Below, piece after piece: positions 44,316 through 64,000 of a stretch of DNA of 64,000 nt. Position 1 is the stretch's first letter, and each line of letters opens with the position of its first letter. This stretch comes from Candidatus Bathyarchaeota archaeon. GTDB lineage: Archaea > Thermoproteota > Bathyarchaeia > Bathyarchaeales > Bathycorpusculaceae. The stretch is from the NCBI GenBank assembly GCA_963767735.1, contig CAVYES010000002.1:216199-280198 (forward strand), given 5' to 3'. Under the pieces are notes generated by a model that had not been told where the DNA came from, ran no database searches, and worked only from the letters and a program-made list of their open reading frames with translations. A program made the translations under genes and the position numbers.

Positions 44316-45332
44316 ATGAACAAAGTGAAAGTCTGGGTTAGCGAGCTGCGGGCTCCGTTTCTAACTGGAACCATTATCCCCATCGTTTTGGGTACAGTTA
44401 TCGCGTGGGTGAGAAACAGCGCGTTCAATCCGCTCTTTTTTGTGCTTGCCCTCATGGGCGGTATATTTGTCCACTTAGGAGCCAATGTGGTTAACGATTA
44501 CTTCGATTACAAGAGCGGCAATGACACACTCAACAAAGAGTTTGTACGCCCGTTCTCAGGCGGCAGCCGAGCTATTCCCTCAGGTCTGCTCACTCCAAGA
44601 GAAGTCTTAGCGGGCTCCATCGTCCTTTTCACACTGGCAACCATAATAGGTTTGTACTTCGCGCTGGTAGTCGGATATTTCGTGCTGGTTCTGGTAGTTG
44701 TTGGTTTATTTTCGGCTTATTTCTACACTGGTCGCCCTTTCAATCTTGCAGGGAAAGGCGTAGGGGAAGCAATTGTCGGATTAAACTTTGGGTTACTCAT
44801 GACCCTTGGAGCTTTTTACGTTCAAACTGGAGCTTTATCAATCGTGCCTTTAGTCGCTGCAGTTCCAGTTGCTCTTCTGATTACCGCCATTCTGTACATA
44901 AACGCGTTTCAGGACTACAGTGCTGATAAAGCTGTAGGAAAGAACACGTGGGTAGTTAGGCTCGGTAGAGAAAAAGCTTCTATTGCTTATGCAGGTATGA
45001 TGTATGCTGCTTACGCCGCCATCTTGGTAGCTGCCTTGTTGCGGGTTATCCCTGTTTACACCCTGATTGCCTTGATTACCTTTCCTTTGACAGTGAAATC
45101 GATTTCGAACGCAAGGCAGTTCCATTCAAGTTCTTTACAGCTTGCGCTCTCAAACGCACTTACAATAGTTGTACACCTGTTTACAGGCATCCTGCTGGTG
45201 TTGGGGTACATGTTGAGCGTTTTTGCTCCTTTAACTCTCGGGTTTCTTGTGGTTCTATCTTCAGCGGTCGTCTGCGTAGCATTGACTTTCTTGCTATTTC
45301 GGAAAATCGCTTACGGTAAGAAACCTGTTTAA
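44316..45332 (+). CDS. menA: 1,4-dihydroxy-2-naphthoate polyprenyltransferase (MenA/UBIAD1 subfamily of UbiA)
   Basis: RAPFL, N..NDYFDY.SG.D, GGSR, YT..PF.L..G.GE, N..QD..AD..GK.T. Confidence 0.85.
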   Translation: MNKVKVWVSELRAPFLTGTIIPIVLGTVIAWVRNSAFNPLFFVLALMGGIFVHLGANVVNDYFDYKSGNDTLNKEFVRPFSGGSRAIPSGLLTPREVLAGSIVLFTLATIIGLYFALVVGYFVLVLVVVGLFSAYFYTGRPFNLAGKGVGEAIVGLNFGLLMTLGAFYVQTGALSIVPLVAAVPVALLITAILYINAFQDYSADKAVGKNTWVVRLGREKASIAYAGMMYAAYAAILVAALLRVIPVYTLIALITFPLTVKSISNARQFHSSSLQLALSNALTIVVHLFTGILLVLGYMLSVFAPLTLGFLVVLSSAVVCVALTFLLFRKIAYGKKPV

Positions 45333-45368
45333 ACCTCAGTTACAAGTCTTTCAAGAGACGAAAACTAA

Positions 45369-46046
45369 ATGACGACAATTGAAAAACCACCGACCTACAG
45401 TGCCTTACCTGAAAATCGTACAACCTCAATTTTTGACAGAATAAGGCACAACTACGAACTGTTGACTCTTCCCCTGCCCTTTATCTTATGGTTTATCACT
45501 TTTACTAGGCCGCCTTTTGGTTTTTGGCCAACGTTAGCGCTCTCAACTGGCATACTCTTAGTTGTCTCCGTGCCTAGAATGCGTAAAATCAAAGTCCAAC
45601 CAACAATACGCGGTTTCGTTATTGGAGTCGCGTTAGGCGTTGCCCTTTTTGCACTTTTCTACTTCGGCGCTCAAATCGCTAACTCAATCCCCGGTTTTCC
45701 CTCTCAAGTTTCATCCGTTTACTCCTTCCGCGGGAATTTCCCTCTCTGGGCAATCGCAGGTCTTTTGCTATTCCCCATAGGTCTCGGTGAGGCAACGTAT
45801 TGGCAGGGCCTTATCCTCAACCACCTCGATAAACGGCTTAAACCGTGGGCTGCGGCTGTTCTAACAAGCTTTCTGTATACGATGATACACTTGCCAACGT
45901 TTAACCCATCACTTATGTTAGTGGCACTTATTGTCGGATTAGCTTGGAGCTTCACGTTTAACAAGTTGGGTAAAAACCTTTTTCCAATCATAGTCTCGCA
46001 CATTATTTTTGACGAGTTCGCCTTCGTCCTTTTCATGATTCCCTAA
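45369..46046 (+). CDS. CPBP/Abi (CAAX-protease-like) membrane protein with degenerate first motif
   Basis: GEATYWQG (expected EE..RG), LY..IH, SH..FD. Confidence 0.8.
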   Translation: MTTIEKPPTYSALPENRTTSIFDRIRHNYELLTLPLPFILWFITFTRPPFGFWPTLALSTGILLVVSVPRMRKIKVQPTIRGFVIGVALGVALFALFYFGAQIANSIPGFPSQVSSVYSFRGNFPLWAIAGLLLFPIGLGEATYWQGLILNHLDKRLKPWAAAVLTSFLYTMIHLPTFNPSLMLVALIVGLAWSFTFNKLGKNLFPIIVSHIIFDEFAFVLFMIP

Positions 46047-46218
46047 CTTTCATTACCCAAGAGAAGCAGAAAATAAAGAGGCGAGCTTTATCGTGTTAAG
46101 GTTTAGGGGCGGCGATGCTTGCTCTGTGAGCGTGGTAACTTTAGCACATTGAATATTTAGATGTATGAGGGGAAATCGCGTCACAACATCGATTTGCTGG
46201 TTCTTTCCCGAAATGCAG

Positions 46219-46677
46219 CTACTTCTTGCTCAGGTAACTATTACATGCTTTGAATCCTTTCTGTATCACGTCTGAATGCATTTTTCCAATGTCCACGAAT
46301 AGAGAGAGCAGGATAAGAGATAGTCTCTTAAGTCTGAAGTTAATTCGATATTGTACCTTCGTCTTTCCATCATTTGGCTCAAATGTCCATTTCCCAGTTC
46401 CTACAAAGTCACCTGCAACCTCATATTCTATCGACTTTGCTTCCACAATCTTCGTCACTTTGATTGAAAACTTTGCTGATCTTATTCTACTTGTAGGATT
46501 AATGGTTACAACAACAATTGCACCCTCACGGTCAATTGGATTATTCCCCATTAGCTTGAATTCAAGAATAGGCATCCACCAATGTGTGACCCCCGCGTGT
46601 TCGTTCAAAATAGCCTTATAGACTACCAAAGGCGGGCTATCTATAACGGCTTCATTAATAACATCATATTTTGGCAT
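46219..46677 (-). CDS. SRPBCC/START-fold ligand-binding protein
   Basis: AVIDSPP..VY.A...WW, G.WTFEP.DGKT.V. Confidence 0.8.
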   Translation of the reverse strand: MPKYDVINEAVIDSPPLVVYKAILNEHAGVTHWWMPILEFKLMGNNPIDREGAIVVVTINPTSRIRSAKFSIKVTKIVEAKSIEYEVAGDFVGTGKWTFEPNDGKTKVQYRINFRLKRLSLILLSLFVDIGKMHSDVIQKGFKACNSYLSKK

Positions 46678-47084
46678 AAAGCCATTGTTCCTTTCTACTT
46701 AAAACATTTTTCTCTTCTTGGTCCTAAAGTCATGCTGCGGGGATTTGAACCCAAGTTGTCAGGTTACAGAAATTAAGCACCCAAACTCACACCTTTGATG
46801 CAATAGTTGAATGTCACGCTGGAGGGCCATGCATTTCTCATAATAAACTGCGGAATGCAAATCTGTCAACTAAAAGCCTGCTAAAATTCATTAACACAAC
46901 GAAACATGAAAACGCAAACAATCAGTTAGTTTGCAAAGTATCTGATCTTTTGGCTTCGAATTGATTATGCGTGTTAACGGCTGTTGGGACATTAGAAGAA
47001 TGTTACGATTTAAAACTGCCTATTATTATGATTCTTTTATAGTTAGATTTATCAAGATGTGGCAGTATTAATTATTGGTCAACA

Positions 47085-47585
47085 ATGAAAGCATATATGA
47101 TATTATCCTGCAAAACAGGCACTTTCAACAGGGTTTTGGACGAGCTAATAAAAATGAATCTTTCCAAGAAAGATGTTTTCCTGCTTTTTGGCCCAGTTGA
47201 CATTCTCATCCAATTCCGCGAATTAAAAGATCTTGACGAATTCATCAATAAATGGTTTGATCCTATTAGAGTAATAACTCCTCAAGAACCGATGATTGAG
47301 AAAACGCAAACTCTCATAGTTATATCAGAAGGCAAGTCATTCGCAGAGGAGCCATATGCTTTCCTGTTCCTTAACACTCAGCCTAGAAATCTCGAACAAG
47401 TCCAACAACGGCTTCAAAGTATCCCTAATGTTTTGTCGGCTGATACGGTCTTCGGACCCTACGATGTAATATGCGCAGTTAAAGCCAGCGGCAAGGAAGA
47501 ACTAAAACAACTTGATTCTCAAATACAAAAAGAAGCCCCACAAATTCAAGGGACAGTCACTGCAATCGTAGCTCCACTTTATTGA
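47085..47585 (+). CDS. Tandem Lrp/AsnC ligand-binding-domain protein without HTH
   Basis: Two copies of A(Y/F)..L....V...L......(L/V)FGP.D(I/V). Confidence 0.8.
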   Translation: MKAYMILSCKTGTFNRVLDELIKMNLSKKDVFLLFGPVDILIQFRELKDLDEFINKWFDPIRVITPQEPMIEKTQTLIVISEGKSFAEEPYAFLFLNTQPRNLEQVQQRLQSIPNVLSADTVFGPYDVICAVKASGKEELKQLDSQIQKEAPQIQGTVTAIVAPLY

Positions 47586-47933
47586 AAGCGCCCCGACTCT
47601 TCAGTGCACACACAATAATCTCAGTAAACATAGCTCTCTCACACGCATTTCAATAGCTTGAAACAGAAAAAGAAAACGCAGTTAATTTAACTAAGAGGCA
47701 ACGCACTTCTTAATGATCTTGACCTTTAACATGAGATAGAGGCACATTCTCAGTCATTTTGGAAAAGATTTTCTGAGATGCATGTCAAAATGGTTAGTTG
47801 AGGCGCAAATCGTTCTTCTGAAGTGTGGGCATGTTCTTTTTTTCTGGATTATATCTTTTTTGAGAGAACAGTTTGCTGCTAAACGATAAAATAATGTTTA
47901 AAAAGAGAGAGAAAAAAGCAAGGAAGTTATATG

Positions 47934-48455
47934 CTACCAGTCAGGAAATAGGTCCATTGTATCGACAACCGAAGTAGTTAAATCCTTTACGCCAGGAATA
48001 CTCTCCATACTTGAGACAACCCGTTCACAATCCACATCGTCTCTTGCTTTAAATGAGCTTATTACACCGTAAGATCCAAATACGGAATCAGCTGATAGCA
48101 CTTGGGGAAGAGTCAGAAGCCCTGTTCGCACAGTTTCTAAATCGCTAGGCTGAGTGTTCATGAATACAAAAGCAAACGGCTTTTCTGCAGGAACCGGACC
48201 GGCTGATATGACAATGAAACTTAACATTTTTTTGATTAAATCCTCCTTTGCACCTATCATTCTAACAGGATTGAAACATTTAGTCATGAACTCCTGTAGA
48301 CTCTTTAACTTATTGAACTGCAACAGTATGTCAACCGGACCATCCAGCAGGTACATGTCACGTTGGTCAATGTTCAACTTGAAAAGCAGCTCTCTAAAGA
48401 GCTCCTCGTAGTTTCCATTCCCAAGTTTACAATTTAGGCCTAAATATGCTTTTAT
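47934..48455 (-). CDS. Paralogous tandem Lrp/AsnC ligand-binding-domain protein; apparent ATA start
   Basis: Shares GPVDIL.QF, P(F/Y)AF.F.NTQP, VLSAD.VFG with 47085-47585; frame extends to ATA-AAA-GCA-TAT at 48455. Confidence 0.8.
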   Translation of the reverse strand: MKAYLGLNCKLGNGNYEELFRELLFKLNIDQRDMYLLDGPVDILLQFNKLKSLQEFMTKCFNPVRMIGAKEDLIKKMLSFIVISAGPVPAEKPFAFVFMNTQPSDLETVRTGLLTLPQVLSADSVFGSYGVISSFKARDDVDCERVVSSMESIPGVKDLTTSVVDTMDLFPDW

Positions 48456-49924
48456 TTTACAACACCTCCTGATATTTTTTCAGTTAGTTTTAGGGGACTT
48501 TGACTTATGAGATACTCGTGTATATTCTGCGCTGCTTTTTTTCCTTGACCCATAGCACTGATGACGGTTGCCTCACCCGTAGCTATATCGCCACCAGCAT
48601 ACACACCCACAAAGCTGGTTTCTCCAGTTGTATCGTCAGTTATTATCGTGCCATCCCCAGCTGTTTTTAGTCCCTCAGTAGTGTTTTGGATTATAGGGTT
48701 TGGTGTACGTCCTATTGCGACAATTACTGTGTCAACGTCCATGACAGCTTTTGAACCCTCAATTGGAATGGGTTTTCTTCTTCCTGATTGATCTGGCTCG
48801 CCTAGGTTGCAAGATATGTACTCCATTCCAATCACCTTGCCTAGTTCGTTTCCTACGAAACGCGTAGGTGACGTTAGAAATTTGAACACTACGCCCTCTT
48901 CTTCTGCGTTAAGTATTTCCTCTTCTCTTGCAGGCACTTCTTCCCTTGATCTTCGGTAAACCAGCGAGACTGATTCGGCTCCTAACCTCAGCGCTGTCCG
49001 GGCTGAATCCATGGCTACGTTGCCGCCACCGATTACGACGACTCGTTTACCAACACTTATGGGGGTATCAGTCTCGGGGAAACGATAACTCTTCATGAGA
49101 TTAACGCGAATTAGGAACTCATTGGAAGAGTAGATTCCGCTCAGGTTCTCTCCAGGTACACCCATGAATTTAGGGAGACCAGCTCCTGTTCCTATAAAGA
49201 CGGCGTCAAAACCATTCTCAAACAGTTCTTTTATCGTAAACAGTCTACCTGCCAAGGCATCTGTGCATAATTCAACTCCCAGCTTCTCAACATATTCAAT
49301 TTCAGCTTGGACTATGCTCTTCGGTAGTCTGAACTCAGGAATTCCGTAGACAAGTACACCGCCAGCCTTGTGAAGCGCTTCGAATATTGTCACTTTATGG
49401 CCTAATACTGCCAAGTCAGCAGCGACTGTTAATCCTGCTGGACCTGCACCGATTACAGCTACTTTTTTACCTGTTGGAGCAGCAGTGACGCTTGGAACTG
49501 TTACGCCCCTTGTTCTTTCAAGGTCAGCTACGAATCTTTCAAGTCGTCCTATGGATACAGGTTGACCTTTCTTGCCTAACAAGCAAAATTTCTGGCATTG
49601 CTCCTCTTGTGGGCATACTCGTCCACATATAGCTGGCAACCTGTTTTGCTTTTTCACTACCCTTACGGCTTGGTCATAATTCTTTCCTTTTATGAGCTTT
49701 ATGAATTCTGGAATCTGAACTCCAACAGGGCATCCTTTCACGCATTGCGGATTAGGACAACTAAGGCACCGTGAAGCTTCCCTTAACGCCTGCTGTTCAG
49801 TATAGCCCAAGGAAACTTCGTCGAAATTGCGAATGCGTTCTTTTGGGTCTTGTTTTGGCACTGGAATGCTGTACAAATGATTCAAAACCGCTGTTTTCCC
49901 ATCTATGGGAGCAACCGTTTTCAA
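48452..49924 (-). CDS. nfnB: NfnB/SudA (GltD-like) flavo-Fe-S subunit
   Basis: RCLSC...CVKGCP, CGRVCPQE.QC, GAGPAGL, YGIPEFRLP, GGGNVAMD, AGGD..G.ATV. Confidence 0.9.
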   Translation of the reverse strand: MKTVAPIDGKTAVLNHLYSIPVPKQDPKERIRNFDEVSLGYTEQQALREASRCLSCPNPQCVKGCPVGVQIPEFIKLIKGKNYDQAVRVVKKQNRLPAICGRVCPQEEQCQKFCLLGKKGQPVSIGRLERFVADLERTRGVTVPSVTAAPTGKKVAVIGAGPAGLTVAADLAVLGHKVTIFEALHKAGGVLVYGIPEFRLPKSIVQAEIEYVEKLGVELCTDALAGRLFTIKELFENGFDAVFIGTGAGLPKFMGVPGENLSGIYSSNEFLIRVNLMKSYRFPETDTPISVGKRVVVIGGGNVAMDSARTALRLGAESVSLVYRRSREEVPAREEEILNAEEEGVVFKFLTSPTRFVGNELGKVIGMEYISCNLGEPDQSGRRKPIPIEGSKAVMDVDTVIVAIGRTPNPIIQNTTEGLKTAGDGTIITDDTTGETSFVGVYAGGDIATGEATVISAMGQGKKAAQNIHEYLISQSPLKLTEKISGGVVK

Positions 49925-50800
49925 TTGCCTCCTGCTTTTTCATGAAATTGTGCGGCCAACTTTTCTTCTTCCGGATAAATTTTTAAACGCTTAACAAGTT
50001 CAGCGAAATCGACTATACTAGGCATCAAATTCTGGACCGTCAACACAAGCAAACTTCGTCTTGTCTCCGACAGTAACTCGGCAAGCCCCGCACATGCCCA
50101 TTCCGTCAACCATGATGGGGTTTAGGCTTACCATAGTCTTTATGCAGTGAGGCTTAGTGACATTTGATGCGGCTTTCATCATTAACGGCGGACCAATGGC
50201 GTACACGATATTTATCGGATAACCTTTTTCAATGAGTTGGTTCAAAACTTCACTCACGAAGCCTTTGTGACCTTTTGAACCGTCATCAGTCGAAATATAA
50301 AGTTCGTCTGATACTTCGCGCATTTCATCTTCAAGAATCAGAAGGTCTTTGTTTCTAGCTCCAACAATAGAGATTACCCGATTTCCAGCCTCTTTGAACC
50401 CTTTAGCTATTGGATAAGCGGCTGCGGTGCCAACGCCTCCGCATACTATAACAACTAAACCAAGACTTTTTATTTCGCTTGGGTTACCTAGAGGCCCTGC
50501 AACATTTGATATCGTATTTTTGACTGGAAGTTTGCCAAGTTTCTTTGTGGAGACGCCGACTTCTTGGAAAATAAGGCTAATAGTTCCTTTGCTTTTGTCC
50601 CAGTTTACGAGTGTGAGTGGAAATCTTTCGCCATCCTCGTCTAATCGCAGCATTACAAATTGCCCAGGCTTAGCTTTCTGAGCAATTTCTGGGGCACAAA
50701 CCTCAATAAACTTTACTTGAGGAGACAGTTCTTGTTTAGATACAATTACGTTTCTGTTTATATTACAGTTACAATCTTGATCGACGTTTAAAATTTGCAT
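49921..50800 (-). CDS. nfnA: NfnA/SudB (PyrK-like) subunit; frameshift near 50020
   Basis: PGQFV, GER.PLT, GPLG.P, GGVG.A, DGMGMCGACRV..CVDGPEFD; tail VDFAEL..R in the next frame. Confidence 0.9.
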
Positions 50801-51202
50801 TTTACAACCCACCTCTGTCAGTAGTAGTATATACACATATATATCATATTTATCTTATAAATGTTTTTTTTAAACAAGCGGACAAACACAAGAAAGCCAT
50901 TCCGCTGTTTTAAAGGCGATGCCATGATTCTGATGGGTGGAAGAACATCCTGCTACCAGACAGAGAGAGACAGAGGAGAGCCCTAATTAAGGATTAAGCA
51001 TTCATCCTGCGACTAAAGTGACTCGTATTTTGCCAAGTCCGTAAATGATAGATAAGCTGGAAACTTTATAAACATTATAAAAATAATATTAATAAGAAAA
51101 TGTTTTTAAGGAGTTAAAGCACTTTATTGGTCTTTGACCTTAAGGTCTTTAAGTTAGTTCAGATGCTCTAAATATGATAGAAAGGTCCGGGGAAAAGTCG
51201 AA

Positions 51203-52204
51203 ATGAATCAACAATACTATGCCGAAATCGACGTAGAAAATGCCTTTACGGAATATTTTTCTAAAATAAAAAAGCAAGTTGAATCTGAACTATCAAAATT
51301 TGTTTTAACTATGCCACAAACAGATCTCAGGTCAAAAATAGAGTATGCAGTTTTGTCTGAGGGCAAACGTTTCCGCCCATTTCTGGTTATATTATCGGCA
51401 GAGAGCGTGGGGGAGAACCCGAGCAAGGTGATGCCTCTTGCATTAGCCTTCGAGCTAATGCATACATCCACCTTAATCCATGATGATATAATCGACCAAG
51501 ATGAGATGCGTAGAGGTCAACCTTCATTATACAAAAAAACGTCTATAGGCGAAGCTATCCTCGTCGGCGATGCTCTGATCGCCCTTTCAGTAAGTTTAGC
51601 ATCACCGTTCGGCGAGACCATACTTAAAGACGTGGCACAAAGCGCCCTCGAACTCTGTGATGGGGAAGACATGGACCTTTTAGACTCCTTAAAAACCGCA
51701 ACTGAACAAGCTTATTTTGAAAAAATCAGAAAAAAATCAGCCTCTCTTTGTAAATCTGCCACTTATTGTGGAGCAATAGCTGGTGGCGGATCACTTGCCG
51801 AGCAGTTGGCGCTCTCTAGATTTGGGGAGAGCTTAGGGATAGCCTATCAGCTGAGAGATGATATGCTGGATTTTACTGTTAATCGGGACTTAAATCTGAA
51901 AGATATTAGTAATGGAAGAGTTACTCTGCCCCTCATCTACAGTTATGCACACAGCACTCCGGATGAGAAAAAGGAAATTGAAAAACTTCAAACCATCATA
52001 AGTAAAGATCCATCAAGCGTTAGCGAGAAAGCAAATGACATAGAGCAAATTGTCCGCCGAAAAGGCGCATTTGATTACTGTGAAAGGAAAGTAGATGAGT
52101 ATCTAACGCAGGCTGTGACGAGCGTCTCAGCATTGAAGGATACAGCATACAGAGCTTATTTAATGGAAATCGCAAGAACGCTTAGAAGCTGGGAAACTAC
52201 GTGA
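51203..52204 (+). CDS. Polyprenyl diphosphate synthase
   Basis: GKRFRP, LIHDDIID.D..RRG, AIL.GD, KSASL, YQL.DD.LD. Confidence 0.92.
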   Translation: MNQQYYAEIDVENAFTEYFSKIKKQVESELSKFVLTMPQTDLRSKIEYAVLSEGKRFRPFLVILSAESVGENPSKVMPLALAFELMHTSTLIHDDIIDQDEMRRGQPSLYKKTSIGEAILVGDALIALSVSLASPFGETILKDVAQSALELCDGEDMDLLDSLKTATEQAYFEKIRKKSASLCKSATYCGAIAGGGSLAEQLALSRFGESLGIAYQLRDDMLDFTVNRDLNLKDISNGRVTLPLIYSYAHSTPDEKKEIEKLQTIISKDPSSVSEKANDIEQIVRRKGAFDYCERKVDEYLTQAVTSVSALKDTAYRAYLMEIARTLRSWETT

Positions 52205-52570
52205 AAAGCAAAACTTAAAGGCTTACTTATTGTTGTAAAGGTCTTAATGCAACGATTGTTTCAATTTATTTGGGGACGGCAATCGCGTGGGCTAGAAACA
52301 GCGCTTTAACTTATGTTCTTTATGCATGGCTTGGCTGAAAGCGCATTCCTCCACGCAGTGCAAACATTGCAAATGATTACTTTGACCATAAAAGCGTTCT
52401 AACCATTGCTTTTCATTTTATTACTAGCATCCTGATTTCCCTGCGGATATCTGCTCTACAAATTCGAAGGCATGCCTACAGCATATTTCCCGTAATTGCT
52501 ATCGTCGCTGTATTTGTTTTCCTGTCGATTCAGCTTTTAATAAAAAAAATTAAAGCCGCCTCTTACTGAA
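52201..52570 (+). pseudogene. Internally deleted, frameshifted menA paralog
   Basis: Fragments NATIVSIYLGTAIAWARNSA, ANIANDYFDHKS and LTIAFHFITSILISL match the N- and C-termini of 44316-45332. Confidence 0.75.
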
Positions 52571-52688
52571 TAATGCACGGCACAAAGGACTTAGATTAAA
52601 AATTTTGTATTTGGAAAGGTCATATTTCGAAGATTTATACTATAACTTTATAAGAAATATACTATTAAACGCAAGTCGGTGATGCTAA

Positions 52689-54928: not shown

Positions 54929-55352
54929 GCTACATCGCTTAAGACAAGTTGATATATTTCTTTTCTGATTAACTACCTTAGTTCATATCAAGCTTTTGTT
55001 TTTTGCGGCTTTGGGACACAACTCAGAGTAGACACCAGATTTAGCTTAATTGTTTCTGGGATCACACAATTTCTGTCAATATACTGTATCAGATTTAAAA
55101 TATTTCTATGTGAGTGAGCGCAAGAAACGATTTGCCCCAAAGCAGTTTTTTGTTTTGACTCTTTATTTGCAACATATTATAATTGCAAACCCAAAAATTG
55201 TGGAAGCCTACAAGTTAGTTAGGCAGATTGTGTCCAAGAAGGCTGAAAGCAAAACCAAATGCTGTTTAGCAAAAGCCCAAGCACTAAATTTAGTAAACGA
55301 ATGCCGCGTCTCCTCTCATGAAAAAAGATAAAAAAAGAGGTTGAAGTGAAAT

Positions 55353-55925: not shown

Positions 55926-56551
55926 TATCTTTCCCTTTCTATACCCTCCAAAGATGTGCTTTTAGTATTTATTATTTTCCATATTTTTTATAAATATTTT
56001 ATTATAATTATAAAATTAGCAAATTACCCGATATTTTATTGTCATCTGATGAGATGAATAACTCGAATCAATACCTAACTCAAATATCATTGTCTACCGC
56101 CCTGTATACTGCTTGTTTTTCGAATTGGCATTTGAAATGACTGACAAGATGTTACGTTCTTCACGCCACTTTCCATGATGGAAATAACAAATTGACGGCA
56201 AAAAAAGTTAAAATCACTCGACTCCTATTGGAAAAGGCGATTATTACTGCGAACATGTCTGCGAGTGAATTGATAAAACGAGTGAAAAATACTTGCCTAA
56301 ATCAATTCCCCAATACGTTTGAAATATGGGCGGATGAAATAAAAAAAATAAGCACTAGAAACTTTGATAACTGCTGTCGAAATAATCTGTTGGGCTAGGT
56401 TTTTTGTTTAGAAAGTTTAGCTATCAAAAGATATCGTTGTAAAAAAGGAGAAAAGATAACTAACTTTTTTGCTGGTTTGAAACCATTAATTTAATGGTTT
56501 AGAAAATTAGGGAAAAATTTTTTAGCAATACTGCAAACTCTTTTTTGAATA

Positions 56552-57775
56552 TTGATGACTAAATGGATTCATGAACTTATTCTGGAAAAGCTTCCTCCTT
56601 TTAAGTGGGTGCCTGAAAACTATCGAGTTCTCGTGCAGTTGCTTGTAATAGAGTTAGTGGGAACTTCTTTAGCGATCCTTTTTTCTTTGCCTTTGTATTC
56701 AATTCTGCTCGGATCCTTGGCTGTTCTTGTAATCTCGATTTGGAGCTATCTGATATATCACATAGGTTTAACTATCCACAGATTGCAATCGCCTTCTGCA
56801 CCACTTGAAAAAAAGGTCATTGAGGACTACCAAGGAGCTCTATTCAACCGTCGGCACTACGAACTCTACTTAGGAGTAGCAATTCTCGGTTTCCTTGCAC
56901 TTTACCTCTTCGGAGTTGACCGAAGTCTCGTCAGCTACTGGCTTGGAGGAAAACTTTCCGTTGCAGGGCTTATTCTTCTAGGTCTCATTCTATGGGACCT
57001 GTCTTATAGACTGGGCGTGGGTCTGTGGTCAGCATTAATTGCCTTAAGACGCTCAATAAGTTTCACAAAAGTTTCGGGAATGCGAACAAAAATGAGCTAT
57101 ACTGCCTACCGAGAGTTGGACACTCTTAAACGCATGGATTCAATAAATTTGGTCTTCGGCCTGGTTACCTTGTTGCTTTACCCTATTTTTAGGTTTAATG
57201 TCCTACTCTTCATTGGTCTTATAGCCTATTCTTGCGCCATTCTGTTATTTTCAGCTGCCTCTCTTTTCCAAATGTCCAGTGTTCCAGGGTTACCTGGTGA
57301 AGTGCTTTGGCTTTTGGAGGAGGGCAAAGTGGGCTACGTTGGAACATCGGATAAAAACATGCAATCGCATTTAACTCCGGTCATCTTTGTCTTTGTTGGA
57401 AATAAATTGTACTTTGTTACATCCAAGATTTCTAAAAAACTTCGAAGTATTCGAGAAAATAAAAAAATTGCCCTGCTTATCGACATCCGTGATGAAACTA
57501 ACCTATATAACAATCGTGCCGTTTTGTTCATGGGTAACGCGAAAGTGTATAACCCCCTGAATTCTATTTGGGGATTCCTTAATCTAATCAAGGCTAGAAG
57601 AGCTTTCTTTAAAAAGTACCCAGAGTATATGCATGCATACCAAAAGGAAAGGCAAAATCTGCCTCTTGCTTGGCGAACGACGCTCTTCGTAAGCCGAATA
57701 CCCGTCAGCGTTGAACCTGAGAAAATCGTGTATTGGCGAGAGGCTAAAGCAATCAAACTTCCGTTAGGTGCTTGA
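56552..57775 (+). CDS. Multi-TM protein fused to a C-terminal PNPOx-like split-barrel domain
   Basis: About 6 hydrophobic helices, then GYVGT.D...HLTPV.F...T...SKK...I.EN.KIALLID. Confidence 0.8.
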   Translation: MMTKWIHELILEKLPPFKWVPENYRVLVQLLVIELVGTSLAILFSLPLYSILLGSLAVLVISIWSYLIYHIGLTIHRLQSPSAPLEKKVIEDYQGALFNRRHYELYLGVAILGFLALYLFGVDRSLVSYWLGGKLSVAGLILLGLILWDLSYRLGVGLWSALIALRRSISFTKVSGMRTKMSYTAYRELDTLKRMDSINLVFGLVTLLLYPIFRFNVLLFIGLIAYSCAILLFSAASLFQMSSVPGLPGEVLWLLEEGKVGYVGTSDKNMQSHLTPVIFVFVGNKLYFVTSKISKKLRSIRENKKIALLIDIRDETNLYNNRAVLFMGNAKVYNPLNSIWGFLNLIKARRAFFKKYPEYMHAYQKERQNLPLAWRTTLFVSRIPVSVEPEKIVYWREAKAIKLPLGA

Positions 57776-58292
57776 CATGGAGAAGCAGAAACTACCCCCA
57801 GAAATGACAGAAGTCTTAAGCACTGGTCACTTTTCGTATTTATGCACAACTGACAATGATAACCAGCCACATATAACTCCAATGTTCTTCGTCTTTGATG
57901 AGACAAACAATAATTTTTATGTGATGACATCTTCCGATTCGAAGAAAATGAAAAATCTCCAAGTCAACAGTAAAGTTTCTTTGTCAGTAGATATTAGAGA
58001 TGCAATGAATCCCTTCAACAACAGGGGAGTAATGGTGCAAGGCAAAGCCACAGTTGAGAAATGCGTCAAGTCTATGTCAGCAGTTGGTGATGATGAAGAA
58101 TTCATTACGACATGTGAAGACTTTCAAAGAAAATATTCAGTTCTTCTTCGAGAAGCAAAGTTTCCAGTCAATGCGGAATATGAAAAGTTCTCAGAGACTC
58201 TGGTACGAATAATCCCTGATAAAATGACTTACTGGAAAGGGCCAAACTTCATAACAGTCAATTTCGATGAACAAAAAAAGGTCTTAGCATAG
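57768..58292 (+). CDS. PNPOx-like (FMN/F420-binding split-barrel) protein
   Basis: YLCT.D...PHITPM.F...T...SKK..N...N.KVSL.VD...NRGV.VQG.A. Confidence 0.85.
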   Translation: MLDMEKQKLPPEMTEVLSTGHFSYLCTTDNDNQPHITPMFFVFDETNNNFYVMTSSDSKKMKNLQVNSKVSLSVDIRDAMNPFNNRGVMVQGKATVEKCVKSMSAVGDDEEFITTCEDFQRKYSVLLREAKFPVNAEYEKFSETLVRIIPDKMTYWKGPNFITVNFDEQKKVLA

Positions 58293-58371
58293 TTTAATTT
58301 ACAAATCAGTTCGATGTGGATGCCTGAATACAAAAGAAAAAAACTTTTCGAATAGTTGGTTGCTGCGTTTT

Positions 58372-59818
58372 TTAAATTGCCAATCTTTGAGCGATAAAAG
58401 GAGCAAGACCAAGCCCAAGAATTATTGTTAACGACACTGCGATGATTATGGCGATTACTTCTGGATCTTTAAGGCTTTCTTTCACTTGCATGTTCTCATT
58501 TTGAGGGTTCGAAAGGAATATGGATCTTATTATTTGACCATAGTAGCCAACGGATATTCCAGTGTTGACGATTGCTATTAGTGATAGCCAAGGTGCAACC
58601 TGTATTGTCGAAATAAAGAGGTAAAAGAACTTGCTCCAGAAGCCCAGCAACGGAGGCATACCGATCAAGCTGAGAAGAAGGATAGTCATGCCGATAGATA
58701 AGATCGGCATTTTTCTCCAAAGTCCGCCAATGCCGTTTAAGTCTGTCTTCATGCCTTTTTGCGTTATGTACGCTAATGCAATAAAAATTCCGGAAGTAGC
58801 TAAAACATAGGCGGTAAGGTGGAGAGCTATCCCTTGAACACCTATTGCCGCTCCCGTCCCGCTTGTTGCTGCCGCGAAGCCCACTAAAATATAGCCAACT
58901 TGTGCTATGCTGCTGTAAGCCATCATTCTTTGTACGTTTCGTTGAATTAGCGCGGCTATATTGCCAAATGTCATAGTAGCTATGGAGAGAATTGAAAAGA
59001 GAATGAGCCATTTATCGCCTAAGACTGCTGCGAAGGGATAAAGAATACGGAAAAGCGCCAGTACACCAGCCACTTTTAGTACAGTTGAAACAAAAGAGAT
59101 TGTAATGGAGTTCACGCCGCCGTACACATCAGGCAGCCAGCCGTGGAAGGGTACAATCCCAATTTTGAAGCCAATTCCTACCACTATCATAATAATAGCG
59201 ATCATGGTTAAGGGTAAGTTTGCGGTTGTGGCTACTTGTGCTATGGTAGTCAAATTGGTTGTGGTACCGGTTAATCCGATTAGGAGAAAGACTCCGAACA
59301 TCAGAAAAACTGAAGCTGTGACTCCCATAAGCGCGTATTTGCTTGCTCCTTCAAGCGACGCTTCATCTTTCTTTATTGCGACAAGGGCATAAGCAGCGAC
59401 TGAGACAAGAGACCATGCTGCTAGTAGAAGAACCAAATCATTTACCGAAATTAGGAAGTAGACACCAGCCGTAATTATCAGTAGCAATGAGAAGAAGCTG
59501 GGGGCGGTCGTCCAACCTTTAGTTTGCCTAAAAGAAGCCAGAGTAACTACGGAAAGAGACAATACTTACAATTAGGAAAAGGAAGGCGCCGTAACTATCG
59601 ATTTTGAGTGCATTGCTGTAAATAGTTAACGCACCTTGGTTTAGCGTTAAAGACAATAAGACGCCAGAAAGGACGATTGCTACCGCGGTTGCGGCTAAGC
59701 TAGCGTACTTGCTAACTTTCACTTTTAATCCGTAATCTATGGTCGGAACGACTAATCCAGTTCCAATTAGGATAATTCCGAGAGAATCTACTATAGCTTC
59801 GATGGCAGATATTGGCAT
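58372..59818 (-). CDS. nuoN: Complex I-like subunit N (frameshift near 59545)
   Basis: EGASKY, GFKIG.VPFH.WLPDVY, GN..AL.Q.N..R..AYSSI, SL.G.PP..GF..K; N-terminal helices lie in ORF 59528-59818. Confidence 0.88.
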
Positions 59819-61876
59819 CTAAAGTATCCCCCACAAGAATATTATTAGTAATATCACGAAACCGATGACCAGATACAGCAGGTAATAATTGATTTTTCCT
59901 GACTGAATTTTTCGGAAAGCGTTAGAAAGCTTCAGCGCCGCTTTTACTGTGGCATCGTTGTAGAATCTGTCTATTCCTCCTGTTTCGAAAAATTTGAACA
60001 TTCCCTGATATAGCTTACTTCCGCCGTTAACAAACACCCTGTAGTAGACAGCCTGAATGTACCAGCGGTCGTACAAGAAATTTTGAAGCGCCTTAAGTCT
60101 GCTGTTGACCGACACTTGTTGTGCCATGCGTAATTGATAGTTTGGTTTGCCGTATAGCAGATAAGCTAACCCGAGACCCAACGCCACCAATGCCAAGGAT
60201 AATCCAGTAGTTAACGGATCAAGGGTGACTTGGAGCGCCGCCGGGTTTCTAACCAAGCCAAGCACACTTCTTGTCAGTACCGAGTAGAAGTCGCCGCCGA
60301 TAAATACCCAGAACAAACCTAAAACTAAGGTAGCTGATGCCAAAATAAAGTAGGGTATCAGCATTGTCTTTGATGTTTTATGCAATTTTCCGTTCTCCAC
60401 TAACTTGGTAACGTTTTGAGATGGCTGAGTTTGGAAAGTTCTGAACACCATTCGAGCTGAATAGAAAGCCGTTATCGCTACAGTAGAGAATAGGAGGGCT
60501 ATTGGAATAAAAAGCCCAGTCTGGAAAACACTTCCCATAACACTGTCTTTAGTCCAGAACCCTAGGAGAGGCGGCAGACCAGCCAAACTAAGAGCCGAAA
60601 TTAACATTGCAATGAAAGTGTACTTCATGTACTTGGACAAACCGCCCATATCAGTTATGAATCTTGAGCCGACCGCATGAATAACCGCTCCGGCAGCCAG
60701 AAACAGAGCCGCTTTGAATATTGCATGGCTTAACAGTTGGTTAAAACATGCTATGAAACCGGCAGTAAAATTGGGAATAAGCCCAGCGGCACCAATGGCT
60801 GCGAACATAAATCCAAGCTGAGAAGCAGTTGAGAAAGCAAGAATTAGCTTGAGCTCTCTTGCGACGATTGCTTGTGTTGCCATAAAGAAGGCAGTGAAAG
60901 CGCCAATGTAAAGAGTTACCGTGAAGAATATCGTGACGTTTGAAGCTGAGGCAGGCATCACGGCAAGTAAAACTTGTAAAACTATAAAGAAGATGGGCAT
61001 GAATCGAAGCATAAAGAACACTCCTGCCTTCACCATGGTTGCCGCATGAATTAGCGCACTAACAGGACTTGGACCAGTCATAGCGGTTACAAGCCACTCA
61101 TGAAAAGGAAACTGAGCACTCTTGGCAAAAGCCCCTAAACTAAAGAACAGCAAAAACGGTAGTAGGATACCACGCAGAGCCATAGATGTGCCCCAAGCAG
61201 CGGCATTAGCGGACATAGCTGGAATGCTCAAGGAGTGAGTAAGAGCATAAATCAGGGCTATTCCAGCAATGAACCCTACGTCTCCAATACGGGTGAAGAT
61301 TAAGGCTCGGACACCACTTGTACTTGGTGAAAACTCCATTGAGGTGCCCAGTGCTTTTCGGTTCGGGTCACCTACCCAGTCTTTCTTTTCGTCAGTAAAC
61401 CAGTGTCCAATGAGGGCATAGGAAGCAAAACCAGTACCTTCCCAGCCGATAAATGTTAGCAAGAGGTTGCCTGACATCACGATAAGCATCATACAGCCTG
61501 TGAAGAAAGTGAAGAACAACCAGTACCTGCTTAACCCTGAATCACCTTCCATGTACTTGACGCTGTAAACGGAAATTAAGAAGCACAGCCAACTTACGAG
61601 GACAACCATGAAGGCAGCCAAAGTGTCAATGTACAATTGGAAGTTGACGCCTATGGAGGGAATCCAGGGAATAGTGAACTGGATAACACCACTGCTGCTC
61701 TGCAATACAAGTATAAGCAGAAGTGTTGAGAAAATGGCTGATACAAAAAGCGAACCAGTTGATATTAGATTCCTGAACTTATTTTTGTGTAATATTAATG
61801 ATAAGAAAAGCACGATGGCGGTTCCTACAAAAGGTGCTGCCCAAGCGACGTTAACTGCTATTTCGTTCAAGCTCAT
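59819..61876 (-). CDS. nuoL: Complex I-like subunit L
   Basis: GWEG.G..SY.LI, RIGD, KSAQFP.H.WL..AM.GP.PVSALIHAATMVKAG, HA.FKA.LF. Confidence 0.93.
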   Translation of the reverse strand: MSLNEIAVNVAWAAPFVGTAIVLFLSLILHKNKFRNLISTGSLFVSAIFSTLLLILVLQSSSGVIQFTIPWIPSIGVNFQLYIDTLAAFMVVLVSWLCFLISVYSVKYMEGDSGLSRYWLFFTFFTGCMMLIVMSGNLLLTFIGWEGTGFASYALIGHWFTDEKKDWVGDPNRKALGTSMEFSPSTSGVRALIFTRIGDVGFIAGIALIYALTHSLSIPAMSANAAAWGTSMALRGILLPFLLFFSLGAFAKSAQFPFHEWLVTAMTGPSPVSALIHAATMVKAGVFFMLRFMPIFFIVLQVLLAVMPASASNVTIFFTVTLYIGAFTAFFMATQAIVARELKLILAFSTASQLGFMFAAIGAAGLIPNFTAGFIACFNQLLSHAIFKAALFLAAGAVIHAVGSRFITDMGGLSKYMKYTFIAMLISALSLAGLPPLLGFWTKDSVMGSVFQTGLFIPIALLFSTVAITAFYSARMVFRTFQTQPSQNVTKLVENGKLHKTSKTMLIPYFILASATLVLGLFWVFIGGDFYSVLTRSVLGLVRNPAALQVTLDPLTTGLSLALVALGLGLAYLLYGKPNYQLRMAQQVSVNSRLKALQNFLYDRWYIQAVYYRVFVNGGSKLYQGMFKFFETGGIDRFYNDATVKAALKLSNAFRKIQSGKINYYLLYLVIGFVILLIIFLWGIL

Positions 61877-61877
61877 T

Positions 61878-63431
61878 TTATATTACTCCTGGAAGAGTGC
61901 TTGCGAACTTTATTAGAGGGTTAATGAAGATTCCCGGGAAGAAGAATAGCAAGACACCGACTACAGCAATTATTATGATGGGTATGTAAATGGACTTGTC
62001 AATTTCCAATCCGACGGCTTCTGGCTGATTCGGCGATGGTTGACCGAAAAAGATGCGTTTCATTGTGATGAAGGCATATCCAGTTGATAGCCCAATGGCA
62101 ATAATCAAGCCAATAACCAGAAGTATGAAGCTAACTGATCCGAGGGCTTGGGCTCTATCTACTGCGCCGAAGATTATCATGACTTCGCTCCAAAATCCAA
62201 GTGACGGCGGAATACCCGTTATCTGCATGAACCCAAGAAGCGCTAAACCAGCGGCTACGGGTACCTTTATTGCCAAACCGCCCATTTTGCTAATGCTTCG
62301 CAACCCGTTGAACTTGACAATGAGAACTCCAGCGACCGAGAATAAAACTGCCTTACCAACGGCATGAGTTACAAACTGCAGCATGGCTCCAGAAATGCCA
62401 ATTGTAGTCATACTGGCAACGCCTAACAGCAGGTAACCCATCTGGGAGATACTTGAGTATGCAAGCATTCTCTTAAAATCATCTTGAGCCAGAGACATGA
62501 GACCACCGTAAATCATAGTGATCAAAGCCAGAACCATGAGGTAAACCGAAGCATCTGAGAAAACGGTTGGAAACATGATATAAACAATCCTTACAAGTGC
62601 GTATCCTCCGATTCCTATGAGACAAGGTGACAACAAGGCTGAAACAGGTGTTGGAGCTTCAGCATGGGCATAAGGCAGCCAGATGTGAACTCCGAAGACC
62701 GCCATTTTGATGAACAGCCCAATCATTATAGCTAAAGCTGCAAAGATTAGAACGTCGCTTGGCAGCATTTCCCAAAGGGTCGTGTTAAACGTTAAGGTGT
62801 GCACGTTAAATATGTCAAAAGTTCCAGTATAGTAACCGAACGTTAAAGATCCAATTAGGAAGAGCAGAGCACCAACGTGGGTCCAAATGAGGTACATGAA
62901 GGCAATTCTTTCGCGTTTTCCATATCCATAGAACAGGATTAGCAGAAAACTTGGAACCAAAGTTAACTCCAAGAAAATGTAGAACTCAAGCAGGTTTGTT
63001 GATAGTGTTATGCCCAGCATTGCCGCCGAGAACATGACGAACAGCATGTAGTAGGTGCCCCATGCAGGCTGCTGGGAATCTTCCTTTTCCAATTCTTCAA
63101 AGCGGTGCTTCATGTAAGGTACTGAATAAAGTGAAACCATAGTGGTTACTAGCGCGATTGAAAAGGCGATGGGACCGCTTAGAGCGTCAAGTAACATTGA
63201 AAAGGAGCCAACGCGGGCGCTACTGAAGTAGATGGGATCAACGATGCCGACGCCTAATCCTGGAGCGAAAAGAGAAATGGTAACGACAACTAGCGGATAG
63301 GCAAGCAGAAGAGTGCTTATAGTTGCCAATGTTTTTGGCGCAACTTTTCGCCCAACTACGGGTAAGAAAAAAGCTGCTACAAGAGGAACAAGAACAGCCG
63401 AAAGCAGGATTGGTTGATTTAACTGAATCAT
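61878..63431 (-). CDS. nuoM: Complex I-like subunit M
   Basis: FY.F.E..L.P, K...F..H.WLP.AH.EAP, D.KR..AYSSISQMG, G.P...GF.SE. Confidence 0.93.
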   Translation of the reverse strand: MIQLNQPILLSAVLVPLVAAFFLPVVGRKVAPKTLATISTLLLAYPLVVVTISLFAPGLGVGIVDPIYFSSARVGSFSMLLDALSGPIAFSIALVTTMVSLYSVPYMKHRFEELEKEDSQQPAWGTYYMLFVMFSAAMLGITLSTNLLEFYIFLELTLVPSFLLILFYGYGKRERIAFMYLIWTHVGALLFLIGSLTFGYYTGTFDIFNVHTLTFNTTLWEMLPSDVLIFAALAIMIGLFIKMAVFGVHIWLPYAHAEAPTPVSALLSPCLIGIGGYALVRIVYIMFPTVFSDASVYLMVLALITMIYGGLMSLAQDDFKRMLAYSSISQMGYLLLGVASMTTIGISGAMLQFVTHAVGKAVLFSVAGVLIVKFNGLRSISKMGGLAIKVPVAAGLALLGFMQITGIPPSLGFWSEVMIIFGAVDRAQALGSVSFILLVIGLIIAIGLSTGYAFITMKRIFFGQPSPNQPEAVGLEIDKSIYIPIIIIAVVGVLLFFFPGIFINPLIKFASTLPGVI

Positions 63432-63432
63432 T

Positions 63433-63738
63433 TTAGCCTTTAGACTCCTCTAGTTCATAAACATCTGAACGCCTCTTCATACGGTACATTAGCATTGCAA
63501 TGGAAACCAGTATGCCTACGTCTGCAGCCGCGATTCCTGTGGCGATAACAGCGACAACTTCACCTGTAGCTGGCGAAGTGGATTGGGAAGCAAGGGCTAC
63601 GAGCGCTAAAATTGCGGCGTTGAAGTTGATTTCTGCAGCTAGCAACATACGTAACATCGTTCTCTTTGAGATAAGCCCGTACATCCCGATGGAGAATAGG
63701 ATTGCGGATAATGTTAAGAAAAGAACAATTATGTTCAT
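63433..63738 (-). CDS. nuoK: Complex I-like subunit K
   Basis: LF.IG.YG, L...EI..NA, IAAAD.G. Confidence 0.9.
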   Translation of the reverse strand: MNIIVLFLTLSAILFSIGMYGLISKRTMLRMLLAAEINFNAAILALVALASQSTSPATGEVVAVIATGIAAADVGILVSIAMLMYRMKRRSDVYELEESKG

Positions 63739-63995
63739 TGTTTAGTCTCCTCTTTACGAGCGATTGTTATAGCTTCAATTAAAGTTGTAATTAGAGTCAA
63801 AGAGGCAATTATTAGCGCGAAACCGTATTTTTGAGTCAACAGGCTAGCGAGATCCATGTAACTTGGAGATGAAATCGGAATTCCACCGCCGAGGTTTAAG
63901 CCGAAACCCAGTGCGAGCAAGGCTGCCACAAGTATTACGGATATTAATGCGACTATGCGGATAGGAGTTTCAACTTTGGGGGCTTCCTCAAACAT
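63735..63995 (-). CDS. nuoJ: Complex I-like subunit J, C-terminal part (split gene or truncated by the window edge)
   Basis: L..KY....I.SL.L.....AI.IARKE; position directly upstream of nuoK. Confidence 0.7.
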   Translation of the reverse strand: MFEEAPKVETPIRIVALISVILVAALLALGFGLNLGGGIPISSPSYMDLASLLTQKYGFALIIASLTLITTLIEAITIARKEETKQ

Positions 63996-64000
63996 TGTGA

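Follow-up and report, generated by a model that had tools for sequence, protein, structure and literature searches.

A complete 11-gene nuoABCDHIJKMLN operon lies, in the genome of a Candidatus Bathyarchaeota archaeon, on a single insertion of about 32.3 kb together with genes predicted to serve late steps of isoprenoid-quinone assembly: a MenA-type prenyltransferase, a trans-polyprenyl diphosphate synthase (IPPS) and a UbiE/MenG C-methyltransferase. We found this island in a window of 64,000 nucleotides, by which we mean the whole stretch of DNA that was analysed (GenBank assembly GCA_963767735.1, contig CAVYES010000002.1, here C2, positions 216,199 to 280,198 of the forward strand). About 19.8 kb of the island lie in the window and 12.5 kb at the start of another contig of the same genome, C7. 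The genome, called G000 below, is metagenome-assembled, 94.9% complete and of 2.5% estimated contamination, and elsewhere it encodes a Rieske/cytochrome b pair, an aa3-type heme-copper oxidase and a cytochrome bd. With moderate confidence we read the island as one section of a (micro)aerobic electron-transport chain in a soil Bathyarchaeon, the section that assembles the quinone and supplies the complex-I-type pump.

Few archaea are as abundant in soils and sediments as the Bathyarchaeia, which are mostly modelled as fermenters or acetogens with an 11-subunit complex of the hydrogenase type. G000 combines a hydrogenase-type complex, a separate non-hydrogenase pump of complex-I type and a full set of quinol oxidisers, and on a defined insertion of 32 kb this pump is physically linked to genes for the tail end of quinone synthesis. 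In this genome one can see concretely how a respiratory chain may be acquired block by block in an anaerobic lineage. An initial annotation, made from the letters of the window and its open reading frames (ORFs), had proposed a co-located module that makes a quinone and couples it to ion pumping. The proposal is supported: a UbiA protein of DGGGP synthase or CyoE type, a NuoD with NiFe-hydrogenase CxxC motifs, a lack of co-location in relatives and a chimeric contig were each looked for as contrary evidence, and none of the four was found.

For comparison, 201 Bathyarchaeia genomes including G000 were drawn evenly from the class; 12 of them belong to the genus of G000 and 22 to a family labelled f29. 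Four metagenome-assembled genomes (MAGs), three whole and one a record of 1.0 Mb, serve as sisters. The island MenA returned 80 loci, around which nuo and quinone genes were located by tblastn with the window proteins, and 95 loci entered the clustering of MenA neighbours. Fifteen class genomes with MenA loci were fetched, partly picked for carrying MenA and nuo genes on one contig.

A nuo operon and quinone genes on one insertion

The ORFs of the window were profiled with Pfam and NCBIfam under curated cut-offs (Table 1), and both collections bear out the J-K-M-L-N order of nuo genes that had been read at its right end. The window ends where contig C2 ends. The start of C7 carries on its minus strand the 5' part of nuoJ followed by nuoI, nuoH, nuoD, nuoC, nuoB and nuoA. 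Because NuoJ of G076, a Bathyarchaeon of a different family, aligns in a single frame across the junction of C2 end and C7 start, the two contigs abut and the operon is complete. Past nuoA stand an MFS transporter gene on the opposite strand and then ubiE/menG (C7:6003-6752; TIGR01934, 201 bits vs a cut-off of 158.35). NuoEFG are not part of the operon, the gene upstream of nuoA being that opposite-strand MFS gene; NuoF was not searched for genome-wide.

As read, nuoN falls into two ORFs with a break near 59,545-59,560. The NuoN of G076 is one ORF of 478 aa and aligns here in two frames. Contigs from three soil-metagenome runs (X2, X3 and X5, from three studies) are one base shorter at 59,550/59,551, one of them being identical apart from that base, and a fourth soil run has no depth there. 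The split is most likely an assembly indel, and other split genes of the assembly may therefore be artefacts too.

Is this complex a variant of the hydrogenase that is usual in the lineage? The island NuoD contains three cysteines and lacks CxxC as well as the L1/L2 motifs of the NiFe site. Its best matches among PDB sequences are 49-kDa subunits of complex I (E 4e-85), with Mbh at E 2.5e-50. NuoB keeps C51, C52, C116 and C145 in the contexts ACCG, GACA and GCPP, the cysteine pattern of cluster N2. A second 11-gene set is present in G000 on the minus strand of contig C1 (C1:12,981-22,682; A, B, a fused C-D, H, I, J, K, L, M and N). Its fused C-D protein, 524 aa long, carries CGICNPCH and DPCFSCTDR, the same motifs that are given for Hfo, the Fpo-like [NiFe] hydrogenase of Bathy-6 Bathyarchaeia, where Loh et al. 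(bioRxiv 10.1101/2020.12.10.419648) treat its L1/L2 motifs; a passage of the Bathyarchaeum tardum description repeats that account of the 11-subunit complex (PMC10477458). The C1 complex, with L1/L2, is of the Hfo type. The island complex shares with Hfo the class of organism and the 11-subunit architecture, whereas its D subunit lacks the NiFe cysteines and is 43% identical to the C1 protein. In a sample of the family with one genome per genus, all NuoD matches outside G000 are 36-45% identical to the island protein, and about half of them are Hfo-like frames of 530-660 aa. Because the island NuoD has no NiFe site, we read its complex as a putative ion pump of complex-I type and not as Hfo; judged from the protein sequences, it appears to be an addition to the usual hydrogenase of the lineage and no variant of it.

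The prenyltransferase of the island scores as a MenA. MenA models give it 109-159 bits, DGGGPS models 36-37 and chlorophyll synthase 56, and its sole match among PDB sequences is human UBIAD1 (E 1.5e-21); it does not score as a DGGGPS or a CyoE. It carries NDYFDYKSGND and DYSAD (N60-D61-YF-D64...D70 and D200-YSA-D204), the two Asp-rich motifs of the UbiA superfamily, and the Asp-rich residues are invariant in 13 homologues. It is thus of MenA type by its scores, and prenylation of 1,4-dihydroxy-2-naphthoate (DHNA) is its predicted activity. Elsewhere, G000 also encodes four paralogues of DGGGPS type and one heme O synthase. The polyprenyl synthase, which together with MenA had been named at the outset and is likewise present, has small residues ahead of its first DDxxD (TSTLIHDDIID).

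A second, decayed menA had also been reported in the window. It is not there: scans of the whole genome with PF01040 and TIGR00751 give one match only in the window, and the gene in question, next to menA, encodes a CPBP/Rce1-like protease (Table 1). The same protease gene adjoins MenA in three other loci (L014-L016) at 81-89% identity. A second MenA-type gene does exist far off, at C7:379,158-380,190, where it is split into two overlapping ORFs of 182 and 269 aa.

Nucleotide homology to two genomes of the genus, G038 and G237, ends at window ~44,164-44,167 and restarts at C7 ~12,486-12,490. In both, the orthologue of C7:12554-13744, which encodes a GT4 glycosyltransferase, comes directly after IleRS, ahead of more C7 genes. 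Since the homology of the flanks stops and resumes at the borders, the island is an insertion that is missing at this site in G237 and G038. No tRNA gene stands at the island borders, the closest being tRNA-Ala at 40746-40823, beyond IleRS. The interval between IleRS and GT4 in G237 (its contig C1) holds another insert of ~3.7 kb at the same intergenic site, with ORFs of ~697 and 346 aa, which suggests an insertion hot spot. On the other side of IleRS, the ORFs of window ~19.8-41 kb have no match of at least 50% identity in the 17.7 kb past the other IleRS end of G237 (C1:806,000-823,700), and that region may be variable as well. In Bathyarchaeota-titled MAGs the pair of MenA and CPBP genes, at 80-87% nucleotide identity, stands beside homologues of genes on contig C6 of G000, and the island looks mosaic.

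Could the module be foreign DNA that assembly or binning placed on a Bathyarchaeal contig? The estimated contamination of the genome and the location of the island at a contig break would fit such an artefact. Yet both flanks of the island are syntenic with the two genus relatives, 14 of 15 genomes of the genus have the IleRS that flanks MenA on the left, at 75-89% identity, and G+C is uniform over the contigs (42.6-43.7%). Sister MAGs encode NuoD proteins 93% (G248) and 85% identical to that of the island, and MenA is 86-88% identical in Bathyarchaeota-titled MAGs; the G248 NuoD gene appears, from the range of its locus record, to lie ~20 kb from MenA on one contig. Independent short-read contigs from four soil-metagenome runs lie on the nuoN-nuoL stretch, and for two of these runs the match is at least 99%. 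We hold an artefact to be very unlikely, and the check for a chimeric contig came out negative. That the host is a Bathyarchaeon, as first proposed, is supported: the eight closest MenA loci of the 80 returned are all titled Candidatus Bathyarchaeota or Bathyarchaeia, and the flanks of two of these eight share 73-83% nucleotide identity with G000.

Co-location of quinone and nuo genes recurs in relatives. Two or more nuo subunits are encoded within 10 kb of MenA in 11 of the 80 loci; two Gemmatimonadota-type loci have nuoH and nuoI on either side of MenA, and in two Thermoplasmata loci MenA adjoins nuoN. The closest parallel among the 201 genomes is G076, with the sole NuoD more than 55% identical to that of the island (69%) and a MenA ~4 kb away; its nuoABCDHIJKMLN genes, 51-68% identical to the island operon, are followed by IPPS and MenA. 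MenA, IPPS or UbiE genes lie 2-13 kb from nuo genes in five further Bathyarchaeia (G013, G108, G036, G065 and G060). Of the 15 class genomes fetched, 6 show the linkage, a rate biased by the selection for a shared contig. Within 7 kb of MenA, the 95 clustered loci encode polyprenyl synthases (33), geranylgeranyl-reductase-family flavoproteins (25), UbiE (18), CCG/HdrD-like FeS proteins (17) and FAD-binding_4 proteins (16, some with a fused NuoB). These recurrent neighbours of MenA all fit quinone and membrane redox contexts. Proteins of the FAD_binding_4/FAD-oxidase_C type (GlcD- or lactate-dehydrogenase-like) occur near MenA in locus L031 and 15 others. At L031:12524-14533 the FAD-oxidase protein is fused to a NuoB domain, a hint of a substrate dehydrogenase wired to a complex-I-type module in Thorarchaeota.

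Quinol oxidisers and a putative respiratory chain

If the module makes and reduces a quinone, what would re-oxidise it? The search of G000 for quinol oxidisers returned a Rieske/cytochrome b cluster, an aa3-type heme-copper oxidase cluster and a cytochrome bd (Table 1). The Rieske protein on C7 is 318 aa long, with a twin-arginine (TAT) signal and a cytochrome b5-like N-terminus, and stands with a cytochrome b of 501 aa, a blue copper protein, a UbiE-like methyltransferase and an AsnC-domain protein. The oxidase cluster on C5 holds in addition two cupredoxin/sulfocyanin-like proteins and heme O synthase. CydA has two neighbours: an ORF of 318 aa without a family match, which may be subunit II, and a second polyprenyl synthase, whose profile match stops at position 193 of 251. 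Cytochrome bd is found in four of the 201 class genomes and in none of the 11 other members of the genus. COX1 is found in 24, of which 18 are in f29, and it is present in 12 of the 17 genomes that have a MenA over the cut-off, a count to which we attach no statistics as the genomes are interrelated.

Other respiratory partners were also looked for in G000. The NrfD family was not found, nor were multihaem c-type cytochromes (no ORF of at least 60 aa has two CxxCH). The molybdopterin oxidoreductase family PF00384, which includes subunits of formate and formylmethanofuran dehydrogenases, was likewise not found in G000, an odd absence for a lineage described as acetogenic. An SdhA/FrdA-like flavoprotein does not track the island, because it is present in all four genomes of the genus that were searched. 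Small Rieske proteins were set aside: G000 has seven Rieske matches and three relatives have 3-4 each, mostly soluble types of 103-122 aa, and only the 318-aa protein is relevant here.

From these parts the following chain may be drawn, provided that the genes are expressed. The polyprenyl diphosphate synthase, the MenA-type prenyltransferase and UbiE/MenG of the island would carry out the late assembly of an isoprenoid naphthoquinone, with an extra MenK-like methylation as a possibility. The head group would either be imported in a DHNA-like form, as in bacteria that have only menA and ubiE, or be made by an undescribed route. The complex-I-type pump of 11 subunits would be fed by ferredoxin, a donor that we infer because no NuoEFG adjoins the operon, and would presumably pass the electrons on to the quinone; the island NfnAB might serve to equilibrate ferredoxin with NAD(P)H. 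Quinol might be re-oxidised by two routes, one through Rieske/cytochrome b, blue copper proteins and the aa3-type heme-copper oxidase, the other through cytochrome bd. Heme-copper oxidase genes are shared with peatland Bathyarchaeia, for clades of which coxABCD, nirK, nosZ and SQR are reported (PMC11619403), in passages that leave quinone supply aside. In G000, by contrast, the quinone/complex-I part forms a defined insertion, and the other sampled members of its genus mostly lack the chain.

Absent ring genes, an altered pocket and a possible methyl step

Several observations weigh against the chain as drawn. It is built from a MAG with the contamination stated above. The genes for COX2 (122 + 104 aa), heme O synthase (200 + 123 aa) and the second menA are each split into two ORFs, splits that may be assembly indels. 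Cytochrome bd is found in none of the four sister MAGs, two of which have MenA and an island-type NuoD. The radical SAM protein of the island, the candidate for the extra methylation, is encoded near MenA in none of the 80 loci and has a homologue in none of the 200 other Bathyarchaeia at E<=1e-40 and in none of the four sisters. Despite its 94.9% completeness, G000 gives no match to MenB, MqnA/D or MqnE/C and no MenD over the cut-off, and across the class sample MenB over the cut-off and MqnA/D matches both stand at 0 of 201. Finally, aligned with ovine and fungal complex I, the island NuoD has Leu in place of Tyr and a gap in the column of His, the loop being one residue shorter and a His following two positions later; this Tyr and His are the residues that ligate the quinone in the 49-kDa subunit.

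The lack of ring-synthesis genes had been noted for the window, and it extends to the whole of G000, searched with profiles whose controls matched in the expected model organisms, and, for MenB and MqnA/D, to the 201 genomes. MenA (TIGR00751) is over the cut-off in 17 of these 201 genomes and reaches 60-98 bits in many more. Since MenB over the cut-off and MqnA/D are found in none of them, the quinone is only putatively a menaquinone, and since neither known ring pathway was found, its head group would be imported in a DHNA-like form or come from an undescribed route. The one near-match to MenB in the class sample is in a genome of f29 that also has cytochrome bd (G128, C3:20397-21194; 302.8 vs a cut-off of 342.7); this protein may be either a genuine MenB or a paralogue of BadI type. 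Full-text literature searches gave no title or abstract on quinone biosynthesis in Bathyarchaeia, though supplementary tables may list menA.

Import has a bacterial precedent. Bacteria with menA and ubiE only, such as Prevotella melaninogenica, need external DHNA according to the section on them in PMC5738691, and the island resembles such salvage systems in pairing MenA and UbiE/MenG without ring genes in an organism with quinone-needing respiratory enzymes. It differs from them, as that section portrays them, in its archaeal host and in carrying its own polyprenyl synthase, regulator and full nuo operon on one island. MenB over the cut-off and MqnA/D are lacking across the whole class sample, a pattern that salvage fits less well. 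The MFS transporter between nuoA and ubiE might be an importer.

Alternatively, the quinone of the module may owe its head group neither to import of DHNA nor to Men or Mqn enzymes. The head group would be the product of an undescribed ring pathway, or another aromatic compound used as substrate by a MenA-like enzyme, and the NuoD pocket would have adapted to this quinone. In favour stand the counts of ring enzymes and of MenA across the class sample. In f29, MenA models match in 21 of 22 genomes and COX1 in 18 of 22, ring genes being found in none, and scavenged DHNA seems unlikely for a whole aerobic family. For the other archaeal phyla with quinones that they surveyed, Zhi et al. (PMC3914697) report genes of the Mqn or Men route. 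The pocket points the same way. The canonical Tyr and His are missing in all 11 Bathyarchaeal NuoD proteins aligned (G000, G076, G013, G108, G036, G065 and five of f29), while three bacterial and two Thermoplasmata NuoD proteins encoded beside MenA keep both, and the motifs GSGH[MF]R and DY[FW]PxEADR are common to the NuoD of G000, of G076 and of the five f29 genomes. On the other side, the recurrent neighbours of MenA yielded no candidate ring enzymes, the island MenA is above the equivalog cut-off for DHNA prenyltransferases, scavenging of DHNA has its precedent in the bacteria just cited (PMC5738691, same section), and very divergent Men or Mqn enzymes can escape profile searches. We regard such a head group as a tentative and rather unlikely explanation. 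In the same tentative spirit we suggest that, in the respiring Bathyarchaeia (G000 and f29), the MenA-type enzyme might prenylate a ring from an undescribed pathway, or a non-naphthoate, which the pocket without Tyr and His would bind. If this were true, one of the most abundant groups of archaea in soils and sediments would make a respiratory quinone by a third route, or would have a new quinone. Ring pathways missed in 201 genomes and an altered pocket make the identity and origin of the Bathyarchaeal quinone ring a testable question.

Does the complex use the island quinone at all? The initial annotation had assumed a quinone-reducing complex I. The 11 subunits and the lack of a NiFe site agree with this, and the canonical quinone Tyr and His are missing. 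A complex with another acceptor, or a ferredoxin-driven pump, to which MenA is close as chance cargo, would explain the missing residues, and 11-subunit complexes whose acceptors have not been identified are discussed for other archaea in the relevant part of Loh et al. (bioRxiv 10.1101/2020.12.10.419648). Two observations speak against chance: nuo genes have MenA, IPPS or UbiE genes as neighbours across several families of Bathyarchaeia and also in further phyla, and the distance to MenA is short in G076, which has the one close NuoD of the class sample. We judge chance cargo improbable. The variant pocket is probably functional, because four of the five f29 genomes with an aligned NuoD also have heme-copper oxidases, and it may bind its carrier differently.

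Under the preferred reading, a quinone-linked pump, the complex has known counterparts. It resembles 11-subunit Nuo/Fpo-like complexes of other archaea (the ferredoxin-fed Fpo-like complex of Methanothrix; the Nuo of Asgard lineages, as outlined in PMC9723677) in its subunits, in having no input module and in a membrane carrier as presumed acceptor. It is unlike these in its gene order J-K-M-L-N, in a D subunit without Tyr and with a short His loop, and in its linkage to MenA, IPPS and UbiE. Models that combine Nuo with menaquinone are proposed for Asgard lineages in that same outline (PMC9723677), and fpo-like clusters are mentioned for hot-spring Bathyarchaeia in a passage of PMC8407382.

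The methyl step is a separate matter. The MenK/MqnK-like methyltransferase named at the outset is a HemN-like radical SAM protein with a putative methyl function; three of six motifs are exact, the score lies below the cut-off, and the other Bathyarchaeia searched gave no homologue. Its score falls just under the NF006385 cut-off and is far lower on HemW, HemN and ChuW models, and the HemW motif HNxxYW is absent. Its nearest ESM Atlas clusters are bacterial, of the 'coproporphyrinogen III oxidase family', and most frequent in Campylobacterota, Pseudomonadota and Actinomycetota. The characterised MqnK and MenK enzymes come from these phyla. CgdH2 and the Gordonibacter MenK are the examples given where PMC10320005 deals with these proteins. 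Compared with the six MqnK/MenK/MenK2 signature motifs of Wilkens et al. 2021, as quoted in Table 2 of PMC10320005, the menaquinone methyltransferase (MKMT) motifs M1, M4 and M6 are exact, M5 reads QATFYPIM (L to I), M3 reads GYKFSSLSMGGGT (Y to S) and M2 is partial. The protein carries both QATFYPIM and NSFSLERY, motifs of a type that occurs in 0-2% of HemW proteins according to that table (PMC10320005). It is thus like MqnK, MenK and MenK2 in its HemN-like architecture, with the cluster motif and two signature motifs exact, two near and no HemW motif, and unlike them in a score just below the NCBIfam cut-off, one poorly kept motif and no co-occurrence with MenA in relatives.

On these motifs the protein is a candidate menaquinone methyltransferase. 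It might instead be a heme chaperone or another HemN-like enzyme, for example for oxidase maturation, with plain menaquinone or demethylmenaquinone as the quinone, and to this we give only a little less than an even chance. The sub-threshold score and the three inexact motifs favour it, and so does C. jejuni CgdH2, which has all six motifs and is nevertheless a heme chaperone in the account of PMC10320005. A preprint on bacterial quinones calls the detection of menK genes unreliable in the passage that concerns them (10.1101/2025.09.17.676790). The distribution also agrees: the gene is never near MenA in the 80 loci, and the one genome that has it is also the only one among 12 of the genus with cytochrome bd, which the four sisters lack. 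What opposes a heme role is the QATFYPIM and NSFSLERY pair, the missing HNxxYW, the phyla of the nearest clusters and the place of the gene inside a quinone island. Because the protein occurs only in G000 among the genomes searched, the methyl step is unproven.

Other genes of the island

Table 1. Features of the island in the window and of quinol-oxidiser loci elsewhere in G000; a figure after "vs" is the cut-off
Feature	Position	Strand	Evidence
Left part of the ~32.3-kb insertion	window 44165..64000		runs without gap into C7:1-12,487
MenA/UBIAD1-type prenyltransferase, 338 aa	44316..45332	+	UbiA Pfam 126 bits; TIGR00751 109.6 vs 102.15
CPBP/Rce1-like intramembrane protease	45369..46046	+	PF02517, 47 bits
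START/SRPBCC protein (Polyketide_cyc2)	46219..46677	-	PF10604, 29.1 bits vs 27.4
AsnC ligand-domain protein	47085..47585	+	PF01037, 44.3 bits
AsnC ligand-domain protein	47934..48377	-	PF01037, 37.1 bits
NfnB/GltD-like FeS flavoprotein	48452..49924	-	TIGR01316, 621 bits vs 471.75
NfnA-like FAD/NAD-binding subunit	50018..50836	-	NF004862, 366 bits vs 220
trans-Polyprenyl diphosphate synthase	51203..52204	+	PF00348, 180 bits
ArsR-type HTH regulator with Cys-rich sensor domain	52689..53417	+	PF01022 + PF14196 (ATC_hydrolase-like)
HemN-like radical SAM protein	53672..54928	-	NF006385 344.1 vs 355
DoxX-family membrane protein	55353..55925	-	PF07681, 24.5 bits vs 23.6
Membrane-anchored PNPOx-fold protein with DUF7530 N-terminal part	56552..57775	+	PF24374 + PF01243
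Soluble PNPOx-fold protein	57768..58292	+	PF01243, 50.1 bits; 8-nt overlap with preceding gene
nuoN	58372..59818	-	NF004445, 319.7 bits; two ORFs as read
nuoL	59819..61876	-	TIGR01974, 416.1 vs 407.5
nuoM	61878..63431	-	TIGR01972, 272.9 vs 263.8
nuoK	63433..63738	-	PF00420, 57.7 bits
nuoJ, C-terminal part	63735..64000	-	PF00499 on both halves; N-terminal part C7:2-247
Cytochrome bd subunit I (CydA) region	C2:123,319-126,569		CydA 299 bits; ~93 kb left of window
Heme-copper oxidase cluster	C5:550.6-556.3 kb		COX1 433.7 bits, 484 aa; COX2, COX3, COX4
Rieske/cytochrome b cluster	C7:374.4-378.3 kb		then second MenA-type gene to 380.2 kb

Besides the genes discussed so far, the NfnAB pair, the START protein, the two PNPOx proteins and the Cys-rich regulator had all been recognised initially, and each has its Pfam or NCBIfam match (Table 1). 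NfnA and NfnB are adjacent and both above the cut-off; by family score and adjacency they make a putative Nfn. The START protein might be a Coq10-like quinone carrier. Two AsnC-domain proteins were absent from the earlier gene list.

The ArsR-type regulator has a Cys-rich C-terminus, and its orthologue stands next to MenA/IPPS in four Bathyarchaeal loci (L014, L018, L019 and G184); in G184 the IPPS, MenA and regulator genes adjoin that of an HdrA/FlpD-like protein. In L019 a DoxX gene lies between those of the regulator and UbiE, downstream of MenA. The DoxX/DoxD assignment of the island protein held for the general DoxX Pfam family only, since it scores 20.5 vs a cut-off of 300 on NF041179, the DoxD thiosulfate:quinone oxidoreductase.

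By hydropathy, the DUF7530 part of the larger PNPOx-fold protein has several hydrophobic segments. A MenA homologue, P0120, one of a group of 510-519 aa (P0115-P0117 and P0120), has PNPOx_N (PF01243) ahead of UbiA (PF01040). The similarity of its PNPOx part to the two window proteins (E 0.017 and 0.86, single comparisons) is very faint, and the fusion, dropped as a lead, is a weak hint at most. The right end of the island (C7:7088-11878) encodes an InlB B-repeat protein, an HTH protein and three ORFs of 274, 452 and 133 aa without a Pfam hit. The pair of DUF7530-PNPOx and PNPOx genes stands next to MenA in two Thorarchaeota loci as well, L042 and L088.

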